From Bacteroidales bacterium (GTDB lineage Bacteria > Bacteroidota > Bacteroidia > Bacteroidales > P3): 64,000 nucleotides of DNA. The stretch covers positions 114,889 to 178,888 of the forward strand of contig JAFVBC010000008.1 in assembly GCA_017480185.1 (NCBI GenBank). Direction: 5' to 3'. Under the pieces are notes generated by a model, which saw only the letters and a program-made list of their open reading frames with translations, searched no databases and was not told the DNA's origin. A program made the position numbers and the translations under genes. Positions within the stretch are counted from its first letter, which is position 1. Each line of letters opens with the position of its first letter. This document shows, in pieces, positions 1-64,000 of this stretch.

Positions 1-363
1 ATAAGCTTTTCCAACATACACATAACCAGCCTCGTTGGGGGTGGTGTGGTAGTACATATTGATCAGTGGGGTATAGCCTTTATTGCGGAAATAGAACTGA
101 GCTAAACCAACACGGTTCTCAATAGTATCGGCCGAGATGTATTTGAAAGTAGCGGCTTGTGGAGCAAAAGTCGAGTCTGCCCATGAGATTTGAAGTGTAC
201 CTTGATCGGGAGTGTCGGGTGTCGGTGGGGTTGGGGGTTGAGGATTAACGTTACCACCGTTGTTGCCACCATTGCCTGGTTCTTCTTCAGGATCGTTACC
301 GCAAGCCACAACCAAAGTGGTAGCCAAAATAGCAACGCCTAAAAATTTGAAAATGTTTTTCAT
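1..363 (-). CDS. Lipoprotein, N-terminal part; gene continues past the window start
   Basis: Reverse-strand ATG at 363-361. Translation MKNIFKFLGVAILATTLVVACGNDPEEEPGNGGNNGG... has a signal peptide with an LVVAC lipobox, then a Gly/Asn/Pro-rich linker. The frame stays open to base 1. Not in the ORF track because it is truncated. Confidence 0.55.
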   Translation of the reverse strand, partial: MKNIFKFLGVAILATTLVVACGNDPEEEPGNGGNNGGNVNPQPPTPPTPDTPDQGTLQISWADSTFAPQAATFKYISADTIENRVGLAQFYFRNKGYTPLINMYYHTTPNEAGYVYVGKAY

Positions 364-977: not shown

Positions 978-1052
978 TGGGAGTAACTGGGTTCGAACCA
1001 GTGACCTCCTGCTTGTAAGGCAGGCGCTCTGAACCAGCTGAGCTATACTCCC
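978..1052 (-). tRNA. tRNA-Val, anticodon TAC
   Basis: Reverse complement reads GGGAGTATAGCTCAGCTGGTTCAGAGCGCCTGCCTTACAAGCAGGAGGTCACTGGTTCGAACCCAGTTACTCCCA (75 nt). It has GTATAGCTCAGCTGG in the D-arm and GGTTCGAACCC in the T-arm. The anticodon stem CCTGC/GCAGG encloses loop CTTACAA, giving anticodon UAC. CCA is not encoded. Confidence 0.85.
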
Positions 1053-4287: not shown

Positions 4288-5433
4288 TTATTTAGGTGCT
4301 TTTTTTACCAACACGTAGGCTGCCACGGCAAATACCAATTGTGGCAACAGTACGGCCATAAAAGGCGAGAGGTTGCCGTTGATGGCAAACGTGGAGGTGA
4401 TTTTCATAAAGAATATGTAGGCAAACGCCAGGGTGATGCCCACGGCCAAGTGCATGCCCATGCCACCGCGTGTTTTGCGTGAGGCTACGGCCACGCCTAT
4501 TATAGACATTATGATTATAGCCAACGGCGTCATAAGCCGCTGGTAGAGTTCGATCTCGGCCTCTTTCACCAGTCCTGTTCCACGCTGTCGCTCGCGAGCA
4601 ATGTGCTGCCACAGCCGCGGTGTGGTCATGGTCTCGATGCGCTGCGCTTTTATGTCGAAGTCGGCATCGGTCAGTCCAAGATGCTGTTCGGCATAGGCTT
4701 TGAAACTGAGGCTCTCCACTCCGTCGGCACCAATGGTGCGATTGGCATAGTTGCTGCACTGCCATAATTGGCGCGTAGTGTCGAAGGTGATGATGTCGGC
4801 GGTTTGGCGTTGCAGCAGATGTCCGTAGTCGTCGAACGATTCGATGCGCACCTTGTGGCCACGATGCTGACGCACGTCGTAGCTGTCGGCATAAACCAGG
4901 GTGTGGCTGTCGGCTTGAAAGTGGATGTCGCTGTAGTAGTTTGTGGCGCGTTTCTTTACGTAGTGTTCTTCAAAATCAAACAATGTGCGGTTCGACACAG
5001 GGATAACAAAGTTGCCCAACACCAACACCAGTGCCGCCACCACCAGTGAGCCGTGCATGTAGGGACGCAACATGCGCTTGTAACTGATGCCTGCTCCCAG
5101 AATGGCTATCACCTCGGTGTTGGTGGCCATTTTTGAGGTAAAGAAAATGACCGATATGAATACAAACAGCGGACTGAACAGATTGACAAACCCTGGCAGG
5201 AAGTTCAGATAGTATTGAAACACAATCTTGTCGAGTGGAGCGTGGTGCGACAAAAAGTCGTCGAGCTTTTCCGAGAGGTCGAACGTGATGATGATGACGA
5301 TGATGAGCGCCATGGCCAGCAGGAACGTCTTGATGTATTTCAGCAAGATGTAGCGGTCAATGCGGTTGTAGTGCAGGCGACTCATGCTATGGTTGCAGGG
5401 TTGAATATCAATCTTGTAGGTGTTATGCCCCAT
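4288..5433 (-). CDS. LptF/LptG-family permease (YjgP/YjgQ)
   Basis: Polytopic membrane protein with N-terminus ...RIDRYILLKYIKTFLLAMALIIVIIITF..., characteristic of LptF/G. The ORF-track start at 5442 is TTG. The first ATG is at 5433 and another is at 5385, so the start is uncertain. Confidence 0.8.
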   Translation of the reverse strand: MGHNTYKIDIQPCNHSMSRLHYNRIDRYILLKYIKTFLLAMALIIVIIITFDLSEKLDDFLSHHAPLDKIVFQYYLNFLPGFVNLFSPLFVFISVIFFTSKMATNTEVIAILGAGISYKRMLRPYMHGSLVVAALVLVLGNFVIPVSNRTLFDFEEHYVKKRATNYYSDIHFQADSHTLVYADSYDVRQHRGHKVRIESFDDYGHLLQRQTADIITFDTTRQLWQCSNYANRTIGADGVESLSFKAYAEQHLGLTDADFDIKAQRIETMTTPRLWQHIARERQRGTGLVKEAEIELYQRLMTPLAIIIMSIIGVAVASRKTRGGMGMHLAVGITLAFAYIFFMKITSTFAINGNLSPFMAVLLPQLVFAVAAYVLVKKAPK

Positions 5434-28924: not shown

Positions 28925-29026
28925 CAAGTAGGGCTCAAGTAAGGCCGTTCTTCAGTATTTCTTCAGTCAACGACTGAAGAAATACTGAAGAACGACTGAA
29001 GAACAGCCGAAGTTGATCCCTACATG
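28925..29026. repeat. Intergenic nested palindromic repeat, copy B; right arm degenerate
   Basis: caagtaggg-ctCAAGTAAGGCCGTTCTTCAGtaTTTCTTCAGTCAACGACTGAAGAAatACTGAAGAACGACTGAAGAAcagccgaagttgat-ccctacatg. Same family as 5512..5613 and 41464..41545. Confidence 0.6.
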
Positions 29027-29073: not shown

Positions 29074-29327
29074 CCCACCCCTAACCCCTCCGAGGAGGGG
29101 AAGAAAATGAGGGTCGCAGGTGTGCTATAAAAACCTCCCCTCCCAGGAGGGAAAGAGAATGAGGGTTAATCTCAGTCGGGGAAGAAGATGAGGGATGCAG
29201 GTGTGCTATAAAAAACCTCCCCTCCTGGGAGGGGATAAAGGGGTGGGGTAGATGAGTTAGTTTTCGAGTGTACTATGCTGTGTGATAACCCACCCCTAAC
29301 CCCTCCGAGGAGGGGAAGGAAATGGGG
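29074..29327. repeat. Cluster of GC-tract hairpin repeats (CCCCTCC-N4-GGAGGGG) containing a G-quadruplex motif
   Basis: Four hairpin units at about 29085, 29139, 29220 and 29300. Two near-identical direct repeats, cccacccctaacccctccgaggaggggaag and gcaggtgtgctataaaaa(a)cctcccctcc. A canonical PQS, GGGAGGGGATAAAGGGGTGGGG, lies at 29228-29249. No ORF is supported. The 80-aa ORF 29172..29414 is a repeat artefact. Confidence 0.55.
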
Positions 29328-29428: not shown

Positions 29429-30268
29429 ATGAAACCTATCATTGTTGGAACCGACTTTTCCGAAGGATCGTACTTGGCTTTAGAACTGGCTGTTGATGTG
29501 GCCAATCGTATGCAAACCGGTATAGTGCTGGTGTGGGCTAAACGCGAAAAGAAATTGTTTAGCAACGACCAGTTGGATGTTATGACCAACCTGGCCAATG
29601 AGAAATTGCGCGAGCTGTGCGCTAAGTTTCGTCCTGCTATGCGATACGGTGAGATTAGCAGTATGATTGAAAACGGTCGAGTGTCGACGGTTATAAGTAA
29701 TTTGGTGAAACGTCTTGAGGCTCCGTTAGTAGTTGTGGGTACAAACGGTGCATCGGGTTTTGAAAAGTACTGGATGGGTAGTCAGGCTGTGCGCATAGTG
29801 CAAGATAGTCCGTGCCCAGTGCTAACCATCCGTCAGGGATATGACTTCCACAAGAAGTTGGAACGCATAGTGGTACCCATTCGTGTTAATGCCAACTCGC
29901 GTCAGAAAGTGGCTCCTGCTACAGGTGTGGCAAGAATATTTGGCTCATCGCTCCACATACTGGGACTGTATGACATGAAAGATCAGGAGACCTCTTTGCG
30001 CACGTTTGTACAGCAAAGTGAAGAATATGCACAACGGCATGGCGTTGAAGCTGTGAGTGTGGTTCGTCCCTACTCAAACTATTGCGACACACTGCTTGAG
30101 TATGCCGACGAAATATCGGCCGACATGTTGGTGGTGAATACCGAGCAAGACCGCATTATCTCGCAGATGTTTCTGGGTACCAATGCCCAGCAGGTGGTCA
30201 ACCGCTCGCAGATACCAGTGTTGAGCATACACCCTGCCGATTTCATCAACGTTGCTTCAAGGGTGTGA
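29429..30268 (+). CDS. Universal stress protein (tandem UspA domains)
   Basis: 279 aa with two Usp-like halves. N-terminus MKPIIVGTDFSEGSYLALELA. The ATP-binding glycine motif VVGTNGASGFEKYWMGS is present. Confidence 0.8.
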   Translation: MKPIIVGTDFSEGSYLALELAVDVANRMQTGIVLVWAKREKKLFSNDQLDVMTNLANEKLRELCAKFRPAMRYGEISSMIENGRVSTVISNLVKRLEAPLVVVGTNGASGFEKYWMGSQAVRIVQDSPCPVLTIRQGYDFHKKLERIVVPIRVNANSRQKVAPATGVARIFGSSLHILGLYDMKDQETSLRTFVQQSEEYAQRHGVEAVSVVRPYSNYCDTLLEYADEISADMLVVNTEQDRIISQMFLGTNAQQVVNRSQIPVLSIHPADFINVASRV

Positions 30269-62251: not shown

Positions 62252-63628
62252 TTATTCTTGCAACACAAAGTCGGCAATGGCCTGCATCGCTTCGGTGGCA
62301 AAGGTTTCTTCAATGGTAGCATATTCCTGTGGCAGACCGCTTTGGCAGTGCTGCATAAGGTGGTTGAGGTGGGGCATCTGTATGCACATTGCGCGGTGAG
62401 TGGTCAGACTGTCAATCATCTTCAGATTGGGGTCGGGGGGCACCTGTAGGTCAAGCTCTCCAGTAATGGCCAACGTGCGACACTTCACATTGGGCAATAT
62501 CCTTGCCATGTCAATGTTTATGAATGCTTGCATCCACGGCATTTGCAACTGGTTGCGCAGGGCGTAGGCATCGGCTTTGCGCATACCTATTTTGGCTTTA
62601 GTTGGCTCATCAAGATGTGCGGTCAGGCGTTGCATGGTGGCTTGAAAGGCTTTCACGCTGGCTGTCGGTGGCATCTGCATAAGCGAGTCGATGCATGTGG
62701 TTCGAGCGTCGACAGCTGAGCTATCCATGCCCATGGCGGCATATATGGCACGGTTTTGTTGCACCATTACCTCACGTCCCGAGCATCCCTGTCCGCCCAG
62801 CATCACCAGCAGGTGCACGTCGTTGCGTTTGGCCGCCAGCATAGCCGCTATAACCGCCCCCTCGCTGTGCCCAACAATACCGCTGCGCTTGCGGTCTACG
62901 CCTTTCACCTTTAGCATGGCGCGCCACATGGCCTCGGCATCTTCGGCAAACAGGGCGGTGGTGGCACGGTCAAGATTGCCTGTTGAGCGGCCGATGCCAC
63001 GGTCGTCAAACCGTCCCACGGCAACACCGTGGCGTGTGAGATAGTCGGTGAGCACAAGAAACGGATGGTGCCCCAGCAACTCGCAGTCGCGGTTTTGTTG
63101 CCCACTGCCACTTACAAGCATCACCAAGGGGTATTTGCCTTTTGTGCTCGGCAGGGCAACGACACCGCTCATGTGTACTCGGTTGCCTTCACTGTCGGTG
63201 TAGTCGACCTCTACCTCTCGTTCCACAAACGAGTAGGGCACCTGTGGAGTTTGTGGTCGGCGCAGCGTAAACAGCGTGTCGGCTGGTGCAAACACCACCT
63301 CTTCGCGCATCACTCCCTGTCGCCAGCGACCATGCCAGCTACTGTCGGCCGAGCCATAAACCAATGTGGCTCGTAGACCAATGCCACCACACACAATGCG
63401 CAACGTGTCGCCTTGGCGCGAGTAGTCGGTTACCTGTATGGGCAACTTGCTTTGCATCGGACTGTAAAGCTCGGGTGTAGAACTGGGGGCGATGTGCATA
63501 CACAAGGCCAGCCCCGTTTGTTGGCTCCAAGCCGTCCACCAACCCGTTTGAGCAATTGCGTGATTGTGAAATACAAATGCAACTGCCAGTAGAGCAAGCA
63601 GTTTTCCTTTTTTGAGACCGAAAATCAT
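62252..63628 (-). CDS. Secreted alpha/beta-hydrolase
   Basis: 458 aa. Signal peptide MIFGLKKGKLLALLAVAFVFHNHAIAQ. Nucleophile elbow GHSEGA within ...RSGIVGHSEGAVIAAMLAA... Confidence 0.7.
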   Translation of the reverse strand: MIFGLKKGKLLALLAVAFVFHNHAIAQTGWWTAWSQQTGLALCMHIAPSSTPELYSPMQSKLPIQVTDYSRQGDTLRIVCGGIGLRATLVYGSADSSWHGRWRQGVMREEVVFAPADTLFTLRRPQTPQVPYSFVEREVEVDYTDSEGNRVHMSGVVALPSTKGKYPLVMLVSGSGQQNRDCELLGHHPFLVLTDYLTRHGVAVGRFDDRGIGRSTGNLDRATTALFAEDAEAMWRAMLKVKGVDRKRSGIVGHSEGAVIAAMLAAKRNDVHLLVMLGGQGCSGREVMVQQNRAIYAAMGMDSSAVDARTTCIDSLMQMPPTASVKAFQATMQRLTAHLDEPTKAKIGMRKADAYALRNQLQMPWMQAFINIDMARILPNVKCRTLAITGELDLQVPPDPNLKMIDSLTTHRAMCIQMPHLNHLMQHCQSGLPQEYATIEETFATEAMQAIADFVLQE

Positions 63629-63693
63629 CTTTGCAAAGATAGCGTTTTTTTTCGTGGATAATGTTGAGGCAAGCCAAGCCTTGTTTATCGCAG

Positions 63694-64000
63694 CCCCACC
63701 CCTTTATCCCCTCCCAGGAGGGGAAGTTTTTACATTCCTCACAATCCTATGAGGCGTTTCCATACAATCCTATACTCCTGATAGGGCGTATTCTCACTTT
63801 CCCTCTCACTTGGTGAGGGCTCTTTCTCTAACACCTCCCCTCCTGGGAGGGGCTGGGGGTGGGGTGAAATATGGAGTGTAGGAGGGGTGTATCGCAAGTG
63901 AGTGCATACGGCGTTGCTGTTGTAGACCCACCCCTTAATCCCCTCCCAGGGAGGGGACGTTTTTTACATTCCTCACAATCTTGTGGTATGTTTCCATGCA
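63694..64000. repeat. Second cluster of CCCCTCC/GGAGGGG hairpin repeats with a G-quadruplex motif; runs off the window end
   Basis: A roughly 75-bp unit, ccacccctt(t/a)atcccctcccagg(g)agggga(a/c)gtttttt(t)acattcctcacaatc, occurs at 63694 and 63918. Between the two units lie CCTCCCCTCCTGGGAGGGG and a PQS GGGAGGGGCTGGGGGTGGGG (63846-63867). Begins about 65 bp upstream of the hydrolase start. Confidence 0.55.

Follow-up and report, generated by a model that had tools for sequence, protein, structure and literature searches.

We found that the 64-kb window analysed here (the whole stretch of 64,000 nucleotides) ends inside what is probably a tandem mosaic array of selfish-looking, non-coding palindromic repeats, BoxC-like in build, from a family linked to DUF559 genes, of which the window would hold the first 2.3 units. 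At the level of the family, we show that this class of triplex motifs is physically coupled to DUF559 genes across phyla, in the way that REPs are coupled to RAYT genes. The elements of the cluster at the window end, which build up between genes, are of a REP/REPIN-like and BoxC/PIT-like kind, and they are not the promoter of the adjoining hydrolase gene. Taken alone it is an ordinary, if handsome, intergenic repeat, and the family-level link to DUF559 matters more.

The repeats occur at two sites only in the window, 63692-64000 and 29074-29327, which have a hairpin and G-quadruplex (G4) potential in common, and the preliminary description of a second copy of the 29074-29327 motif family at 63694-64000 was therefore correct. 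The hairpin CCCCTCCNNGGAGGGG, with at most two mismatches, is found in 8 copies in the window, all of them in 29085-29315 and 63708-63956, against an expectation of 0.09 from shuffled sequences. At the window end, two direct repeats (63692-63766 and 63924-64000; ~83% identity) are composed of two gapless 40-nt blocks, 63692-63731 pairing with 63924-63963 and 63727-63766 with 63961-64000, at 83% identity each, and an exact 20-mer, TTTTTACATTCCTCACAATC, is common to both repeats, at 63727 and 63961 (chance expectation 0.01). Between them lies an inverted copy of their GC-rich part, with 23-nt arms at 63708-63730 and 63830-63852 that are 91% complementary. These direct repeats are the ~75-bp unit that had been described as occurring twice, but the true unit measures ~235-265 bp and repeats with a period of ~232 bp. 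Using an ENA contig (L001) that is identical to the window where the two overlap, carries the same hydrolase gene and reaches 199 nt further (contig position p being window position 64200-p), we could follow the array past position 64000, as anticipated from a cluster described as cut by the window end. It continues to virtual position 64199, where unit 3 starts and the assembly breaks, so that window and contig combined display two full units and then the start of a third. The assemblies all break inside the array, which explains why assemblies of this genome break at this site.

Each unit follows the order C-box core, tail, accessory hairpin or hairpins, inverted core and a 56-60-nt spacer, termed E; the flanks are >90% identical between units, and the unit middles differ by gained or lost hairpin modules. 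Unit 1 opens with a full triplex-type core at 63696..63724 whose G-rich strand is the minus strand (TCCCCTCC-TG-GGAGGGGA-TAA-AGGGGTGG; plus strand CCACCCCTTTATCCCCTCCCAGGAGGGGA), with 8/8 triads allowed, a second loop of 3 nt and also a G-quadruplex motif at 63694-63715 on the minus strand. The unit-specific tail (AGTTTTTACATTCCTCACAATCC..., 63725..63802, plus strand) is kept between tandem units only; a T-run immediately 3' of the hairpin gives a terminator-like look on the plus strand, and a further, small hairpin (CCTCA..TGAGG) lies within the tail. An internal accessory hairpin present in both units (CTCTCACTTGGTGAGGG, 63803..63819, plus strand) is followed by the inverted partner of the first core, a full core at 63837..63864 with the plus strand as its G-rich strand (CCCCTCC-TG-GGAGGGG-CTG-GGGGTGG(GG)). 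The potential quadruplex sequence reported here earlier, GGGAGGGGCTGGGGGTGGGG, does exist, at 63845-63864 and not at 63846-63867. Spacer E (GAAATATGGAGTGTAGGAGGGGTGTATCGCAAGTGAGTGCATACGGCGTTGCTGTTGTAG, 63866..63925, plus strand) then separates this G-box from the next C-box and is itself >90% identical between units. Unit 2 is opened by a further full core at 63927..63957, G-rich on the minus strand (TCCCCTCCC-T-GGGAGGGGA-TTA-AGGGGTGGG), with 9/9 triads allowed and a G-quadruplex motif at 63927-63947 (minus strand), and the second copy of the tail (63958..64000, plus strand) is cut by the window end. On the contig, the tail of unit 2 leads into the accessory hairpin, which is followed by a hairpin-only copy (~64035-64057), a full core that is G-rich on the plus strand (64102-64127) and spacer E, before unit 3 begins at ~64190-64199. 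The sister cluster at 29075..29315, located in the divergent intergenic region between ruvB and a Usp-like gene, comprises full cores at 29075-29100 (minus), 29218-29246 (plus) and 29290-29315 (minus), with hairpin-only copies at 29137-29152.

Tandem Repeats Finder reported no repeat in positions 1-700 of the contig, because the units differ by indels. When searched against 185,579 species genomes, the tail 20-mer returned one match, a chance occurrence in an unrelated signal-peptide coding sequence of a Cytophagales MAG, and a 22-mer of spacer E had no match in JGI metagenomes; as far as these sequence searches reach, tail and spacer appear private to this lineage. Comparison of the whole unit by blastn with phage and plasmid collections matched the core alone, and a literature search with the literal repeat sequences gave no match. 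Conservation extends beyond the core into tail and spacer because the long unit was recently duplicated in tandem; the conserved tail of the preliminary description is real as an exact 20-mer shared between units, but it is owed to this duplication and was not found elsewhere in the genomes searched.

Next, we investigated the core motif. Each unit carries inverted copies of a core of ~30 nt (CCCCTCC-loop-GGAGGGG-3 nt-GGGGTGGGG). On the G-rich strand of this core, a short loop joins the pyrimidine arm CCCCTCC to the purine arm GGAGGGG, and a second loop, of 3 nt, leads on to a G-box (GGGGTGGGG). Because this G-box mirrors the purine arm, with T (or A) facing the A, every position is able to form a G.G-C, T.A-T or A.A-T triad. 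Under the ITxF definition of triplex motifs (stems of 6-15 nt, loops of 1-6 nt, at most one mismatch if the stem exceeds 7 nt), with the arm order 5'-Y-R-RH-3' and the triads G.G-C, A.A-T and T.A-T required, class II purine-motif intrastrand triplex motifs were called at 6 copies in the window and 4 in the contig; their stems measure 7-9 nt and contain 0 mismatches, and the second loop is always 3 nt long. All six in the window fall in the two clusters, with every triad allowed, compared with 0 such motifs in 200 dinucleotide-preserving shuffles. Canonical G-quadruplex motifs (four runs of G3 or longer, with gaps of 1-7 nt) number 5 in the window (shuffle mean 0.4), 4 of them in the two clusters; they are present in 4/6 full copies, those at 29075 and 29290 having three tracts only. 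Triad compatibility is therefore the better-conserved property, and the label 'hairpin/G4' for the element is fair but incomplete, hairpin and G4 being nearly iso-energetic under RNA parameters. One strand can fold as a hairpin with a reverse-Hoogsteen third strand, that is, as a class II purine-motif intrastrand triplex, with the opposite strand C-rich, and some copies could alternatively form a G-quadruplex. We infer that the core may form a triplex in vivo.

The architecture is that of the BoxC/PIT/TM_ECO elements of E. coli (Hoyne et al. 2000, as cited in PMC4666352), whose consensus is CCCTCNCCC N3-6 GGGNGAGGG N3 GGGNGAGGG with TTA or CCG as second loop, and whose oligonucleotides form a triplex rather than a G4 by NMR in vitro, and also by CD (PMC4666352). 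TM_ECO copies are always intergenic, without strand bias and often in inverted pairs (Holder et al. 2015, PMC4666352), their sites are embedded in unusually variable regions that are rearrangement hot spots, and many G/C-rich triplex motifs also exist in cyanobacteria (PMC4666352). The elements studied here likewise combine a C-rich arm, a loop, a purine arm, a 3-nt loop (often TTA) and a mirror G-rich third arm, use G.G-C triads together with T.A-T or A.A-T, and are found between genes in variable parts of the genome, on both strands without bias and in inverted pairs. Unlike in TM_ECO, the stems are CCCCTCC/GGAGGGG/GGGGTGGGG instead of CCCTCNCCC/GGGNGAGGG/GGGNGAGGG and measure 7-9 nt instead of 9-10, the host belongs to a Bacteroidales lineage, and the motif is placed inside a tandemly repeated composite unit of 235-265 bp. 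The TM_ECO consensus is not matched, the window cores conforming to CCCCTCC N2-4 GGAGGGG N3 GGGGTGG; with the TM_ECO design and a different stem sequence, the element is therefore a variant that falls outside the TM_ECO sequence family, and it appears to be a new sequence variant of BoxC-like triplex-motif repeats.

Upon searching for the exact pattern CCCACCCC-N2-5-CCCCTCC-N2-4-GGAGGGG, we found the core in 45 IMG/VR (viral) stretches and in at least 120 metagenome stretches, with contig GC content from 0.30 to 0.75 among the matches listed and with unrelated flanks. Blastn placed it at 13-16 positions on each of the Pannonibacter plasmids, where an ABC substrate-binding gene and a permease gene flank one cluster whose copies alternate in orientation, and also on Nostoc and Sphingomonas plasmids. 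Neighbouring cores form 16 '+-' pairs (C-box...hairpin / hairpin...G-box) versus 1 '-+' pair, and many apparently single cores have a decayed partner, so that the family usually takes the form of inverted doublets of ~85-110 bp. Tandem arrays of the core were also observed at the loci L053, L094, L114, L170 (period 281) and L179.

Both window clusters are intergenic and contain both core orientations. Across contigs with <50% GC, 48/63 core sites (~76%) are intergenic, compared with 25% under random placement, and the low-GC sites with both neighbours called (n = 36) divide into 30 between co-directional genes, 3 divergent and 3 convergent, many low-GC sites being situated 1-40 nt after stop codons; these positional statistics rest on crude ORF calls. 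As had been noted, both clusters begin within 50-300 bp upstream of a minus-strand gene start, cluster 2 starting 64 nt from the hydrolase ATG (63628), on its upstream side, and cluster 1 starting 285 nt upstream of ruvB (28789) and ending ~100 nt before the plus-strand Usp-like gene at 29429. A promoter-proximal regulatory element that acts, perhaps as a G4/hairpin switch, on transcription initiation of the adjoining minus-strand gene would account for these distances, and such a switch is structurally possible given that the four G-quadruplex copies overlap a hairpin arm. The window however offers only two cases, one of them in a divergent region with a plus-strand gene on its other side; 2/6 full copies are not G-quadruplex motifs; and of the 36 classified low-GC sites, 30 are located between co-directional genes and only 3 in divergent regions. 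Copies in which the hairpin is followed by a T-run face ruvB in cluster 1 and face away from the hydrolase in cluster 2, and orientation relative to the adjoining gene is therefore inconsistent. Between the hydrolase ATG and the repeats there is a 63-nt gap outside the repeat (63629..63691, minus strand), in which a box TAtcTTTG ends 5 nt before the ATG. The Bacteroidota -7 promoter consensus being TAnnTTTG, a promoter outside the repeats is therefore likely, and judged by this consensus the gap probably contains the hydrolase promoter. In E. coli, TM_ECO elements are more often upstream than downstream of ORFs (Holder et al., PMC4666352), which would favour a promoter role, but their distances to ORFs span 10-310 nt with no trend, PIT/TM_ECO elements have no preferred distance to ORFs (PMC4666352), and PIT elements had no promoter activity according to earlier work as cited there. 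We consider a promoter-proximal role very unlikely. What survives of the idea of a recurring promoter-proximal element, distinct from random sequence, is that the family is specific and recurring; no promoter bias was found among the classified sites.

That many copies in other genomes lie shortly after stop codons bears on another reading, in which the copies are host-serving elements at the RNA level (terminators or insulators, or stabilisers of mRNA 3' ends), as has been proposed for REPs. Several copies fit a hairpin-plus-T-run terminator consensus, cluster 2 having 3 on its plus strand and cluster 1 having 6 calls, which overlap one another, on its minus strand, above the 0.7-0.8 expected, and the copy downstream of DUF559 genes, described below, overlaps the DUF559 stop codon. 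Against this, none of the hairpin-plus-T-run copies in the window, and neither cluster as a whole, lies at the 3' end of a gene, T-runs are missing from many members of the core family, and PIT elements lacked terminator activity in E. coli in the earlier work that PMC4666352 cites. Neither the conserved mirror G-box nor the bracketing of DUF559 genes is accounted for in this way. As the explanation of the family an RNA-level function is unlikely, and a terminator or stabiliser role may be a secondary effect of some copies.

The regular spacing of the units, the strongly stable fold (z = -6 to -7) and the short ORFs that cross the units could also suggest small RNA genes arranged in series, an array of CRISPR-like type or repeats that encode small proteins. 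Yet Rfam at gathering thresholds returned only a tRNA located elsewhere in the window, and at permissive E-values the two clusters gave chance-level matches to miRNA and CRISPR-DR families, far below gathering scores. The inter-repeat sequences are >90% conserved between units, and conserved 'spacers' argue that the array is not a CRISPR array, a candidate we rejected. Furthermore, we saw no Bacteroidota promoter motif inside the units, and the ORFs are low-complexity read-throughs of the repeats. We rejected all three forms of this explanation as extremely improbable.

When we clustered the ORFs of 125 motif-bearing loci by family, one protein family was common to 11 of them, DUF559 (PF04480, E = 1e-26 to 1e-33); it was the only ORF family in more than 5 motif loci, a level that no Y1 transposase family reached. 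An HMM built from these sequences detected 14 DUF559 ORFs in 1.18 Mb of motif loci, 13 of which lie at most ~50 nt from an exact core (13 of 120 motif-selected loci). The arrangement is a fixed bracket: hairpin-TTA-GGGGTGGG precedes the ATG of the DUF559 gene by 3-60 nt, and at the other end CCCACCCC-TAA-hairpin adjoins the stop codon or overlaps it. Of the upstream copies 7/8 are G-rich in sense, and of the downstream copies 10/10 are C-rich in sense.

We then drew three independent samples in which loci were picked by DUF559 protein similarity and the motif was ignored. In the Bacteroidota-type sample, composed of homologues of one DUF559 protein on long contigs, all 8 of the 8 distinct contexts are bracketed by the same core, and these include positions between arsC and fumC, gatB and gatD, carA and mfd, and E2 and recG, among others. 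In the plasmid database (tblastn, 13 loci), 6 loci, from Neisseria, two Pseudanabaena, Azospirillum, Photobacterium and Sphingomonas, have a bracket or an adjoining array with different stems, 1 more is a weak case, and 6 lack the motif. Among viral contigs, 27 DUF559 loci comprised 1 strong and ~5 weak motif cases. The relaxed motif scan produced 0 false positives in the 63 kb of the window outside the clusters. In loci picked without the motif, a third arm that is mirror-symmetric to an asymmetric purine arm was found in >10 distinct sequence families, with a second loop almost always of 3 nt (for example GGGAGAAGGGGG-CAG-GGGGGATGAGGG); the mirror-versus-direct test did not discriminate on motif-selected loci, where it is uninformative because GGGGTGGGG is itself mirror-symmetric.

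The 64-kb window contains no DUF559 ORF of at least 40 aa by HMM. The slot between G-box and C-box that the gene holds in gene-bearing relatives is filled in the window array by the 56-60-nt spacer E, a correspondence of position that we treat as a slot analogy, and as judged from the sequence, the link of this array to DUF559 is one of family membership only. Among PDB entries, the profile of DUF559, a Vsr-like nuclease family of the PD-(D/E)xK fold, has a match in 3HRL (E = 5e-28) and a weak one in 3R3P (E = 2.5e-4), a homing endonuclease entry (I-Bth0305I, EDxHD family). Within the literature mentioning DUF559 we found no connection to repeats, and no paper reporting the pairing of motif and gene was found. 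DUF559 is a very large family to which, to our knowledge, no function has been assigned, and for BoxC/PIT elements, although familiar from the 1990s onwards, we know of no origin, mobility mechanism or partner protein.

E. coli K-12 carries the DUF559 gene ycjD, and TM_ECO #9 lies 168 nt downstream of it. The gene ends in ...TCA CCC TCT CCC TGA, a BoxC-like C-box plus stop codon, and part of this 3' end exists in duplicate. Among 5426 complete E. coli genomes, 3375 have the ycjD-TM segment and the others lack it; genomes without ycjD still have TM_ECO matches, and present-day copies therefore need no gene nearby. The O157:H7 locus, considered as a clean empty site for ycjD, proved to be rearranged and is not a clean excision. 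The account of TM_ECO by Holder et al. (PMC4666352) contains no mention of ycjD.

The retention of motif copies by E. coli genomes that lack ycjD could suggest a passive by-product, a structure-prone G/C-rich sequence amplified by slippage or recombination, with DUF559 genes landing or being retained near the repeats. The status of TM_ECO loci as rearrangement hot spots is in line with this, as is the growth of the present array by tandem duplication of a ~235-265 bp unit. It would have to explain, however, why a core of 27-30 nt recurs almost unchanged in different phyla although its flanks are unrelated, and why the orientation of the DUF559 bracket is fixed (8/8, 10/10, 7/8) while the stem sequences differ by clade; a shared core and a fixed bracket are hard to obtain without a specific protein-DNA relationship, and we judge a passive origin distinctly unlikely. 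Under such a specific relationship, the DUF559 nuclease would most likely recognise or nick the structured motif, and motif copies would be spread or kept by repair or recombination. The window copies, in which cores are paired in inverted orientation and the unit-specific sequence has been duplicated in tandem together with the cores, would then be gene-less, non-autonomous members. More broadly, we tentatively propose, with rather less than even confidence, that BoxC/PIT-type repeats and DUF559 form a cognate pair across bacterial phyla, the nuclease being always bracketed by its own clade-specific motif and recognising and nicking the repeats, which would spread or destabilise them; the window array would then be its gene-less colony, and the gene may lie on the unassembled side.

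Several known systems share features with these elements. REP/BIME sequences are imperfect palindromes, 20-40 bp long and headed by a conserved GTAG or CGTC, and RAYT is a Y1/HUH transposase gene flanked by REPs. Like REP, BIME and REPIN elements, the present repeats are short intergenic palindromes of alternating orientation that occur as doublets and mosaic clusters, and, as in REP-RAYT systems, inverted repeat copies stand on either side of a small nuclease gene that appears to be single-copy. They differ in having no GTAG/CGTC tag, the bases before the C-box being variable (GCAG, GTAGA, GTTTA), in the extra mirror G-box, which has no REP counterpart, and in a partner protein with the DUF559 PD-(D/E)xK fold instead of an HUH/Y1 transposase. 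MITEs are comparable in their inverted terminal copies (here ~27-30 nt), non-coding nature, length (85-270 bp) and the existence of a gene-bearing version. Unlike in MITEs, inspection of the doublet flanks revealed no consistent target-site duplication, with no clean empty sites found, no known transposase is involved, and the order of the doublet ends is opposite to that of the gene-bearing unit. Finally, the weak profile match and the placement of a small, selfish-looking gene between housekeeping genes recall Vsr-like homing endonucleases (EDxHD, I-Bth0305I, 3R3P), from which the DUF559 genes here differ in lacking an intron or intein context.

Were the cognate pair real, DUF559, including E. 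coli YcjD, would gain a function, BoxC elements would gain an origin, and the genomic instability reported around BoxC elements would be explained. The pairing is found in E. coli K-12, Bacteroidota, Cyanobacteria and Proteobacteria, so that both questions could be tested through ycjD and TM_ECO. For annotation, knowledge of the motif keeps false calls of small ORFs and of a 'G4 promoter' out of Bacteroidota MAGs. As for the gene that adjoins the array, it occupies 62252-63628 on the minus strand (Hydrolase_4 / Peptidase_S9), and its protein is listed in NCBI as alpha/beta hydrolase [Bacteroidales bacterium], with a nearest homologue at 53% identity. The Bacteroidales MAG also carries T9SS plug, GldN and Por_Secre_tail genes.

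We found that the motif of the triplex family, a BoxC-like repeat of about 30 nt, can overlap the 3′ end of a DUF559 gene, which encodes a small Vsr-like nuclease. In the locus L091 (4770-4796) the 3-nt loop of the motif is the stop codon of the DUF559 gene (ACC CAC CCC TAA), and in E. coli K-12 (L169, about 4408-4425) it is the stop codon of the family member ycjD (TCA CCC TCT CCC TGA), so that the C-box, the C-rich segment of the motif, encodes the final codons of the protein. Within the sapF-ycjD-fabI region of K-12 (L169 4041-4828), the last 45 nt at the 3′ end of ycjD are repeated downstream of its stop codon. The segment comprising ycjD and the downstream E. coli BoxC/PIT motif copy TM_ECO #9 displays presence/absence polymorphism, being found in 3375 of the 5426 complete E. 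coli genomes, and upstream of fabI O157:H7 carries other DNA instead, including a TetR gene.

Triplex-type motifs in alternating orientation also form long, regular arrays downstream of DUF559 genes; the period is ~281 bp in Neisseria gonorrhoeae (L170 1504-2199) and ~148 bp in Photobacterium (L179 1370-2251), and the organisation is similar to that of the array in the window. Most Bacteroidota-type DUF559 homologues (proteins P0121-P0240) are carried on contigs of only 0.5-3 kb, indicating that assembly often breaks off near such a gene, as it also does at the window end. In another locus (L222 1914-3417), a free-standing DUF559 gene is followed immediately downstream by a RecG helicase ORF that contains internal Pfam DUF559/MTES_1575 matches, which suggests that a DUF559 domain has been inserted in or fused to recG.

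In nine soil metagenome loci (L057, L079, L086, L090, L095, L107, L120, L121 and L125), the inverted repeat extends outward past the core, with the layout GCATTGGGACCATGAA-CCCACCCC ... GGGGTGGG-TTCATGGTCCCAATGC; the core in this subfamily is thus part of a larger palindromic element.

Upstream of the hydrolase gene, a Bacteroidota-type −7 box, TAtcTTTG (within 63629-63691, minus strand), ends just 5 nt from the ATG, which implies that the mRNA would be leaderless or near-leaderless and that the promoter would sit outside the repeats. A long, near-perfect palindrome (28934-29008; TTCTTCAGTATTTCTTCAGTCAACGACTGAAGAAATACTGAAGAA...) separates the start of ruvB from cluster 1, the repeat cluster on that side; the palindrome has no kinship with the triplex-motif family and attracts numerous spurious miRNA-like Rfam matches. 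The sole Rfam match at the gathering threshold is a tRNA gene (978-1052, minus strand). A fifth G-quadruplex motif (208-237, plus strand) bears no relation to the repeat family.
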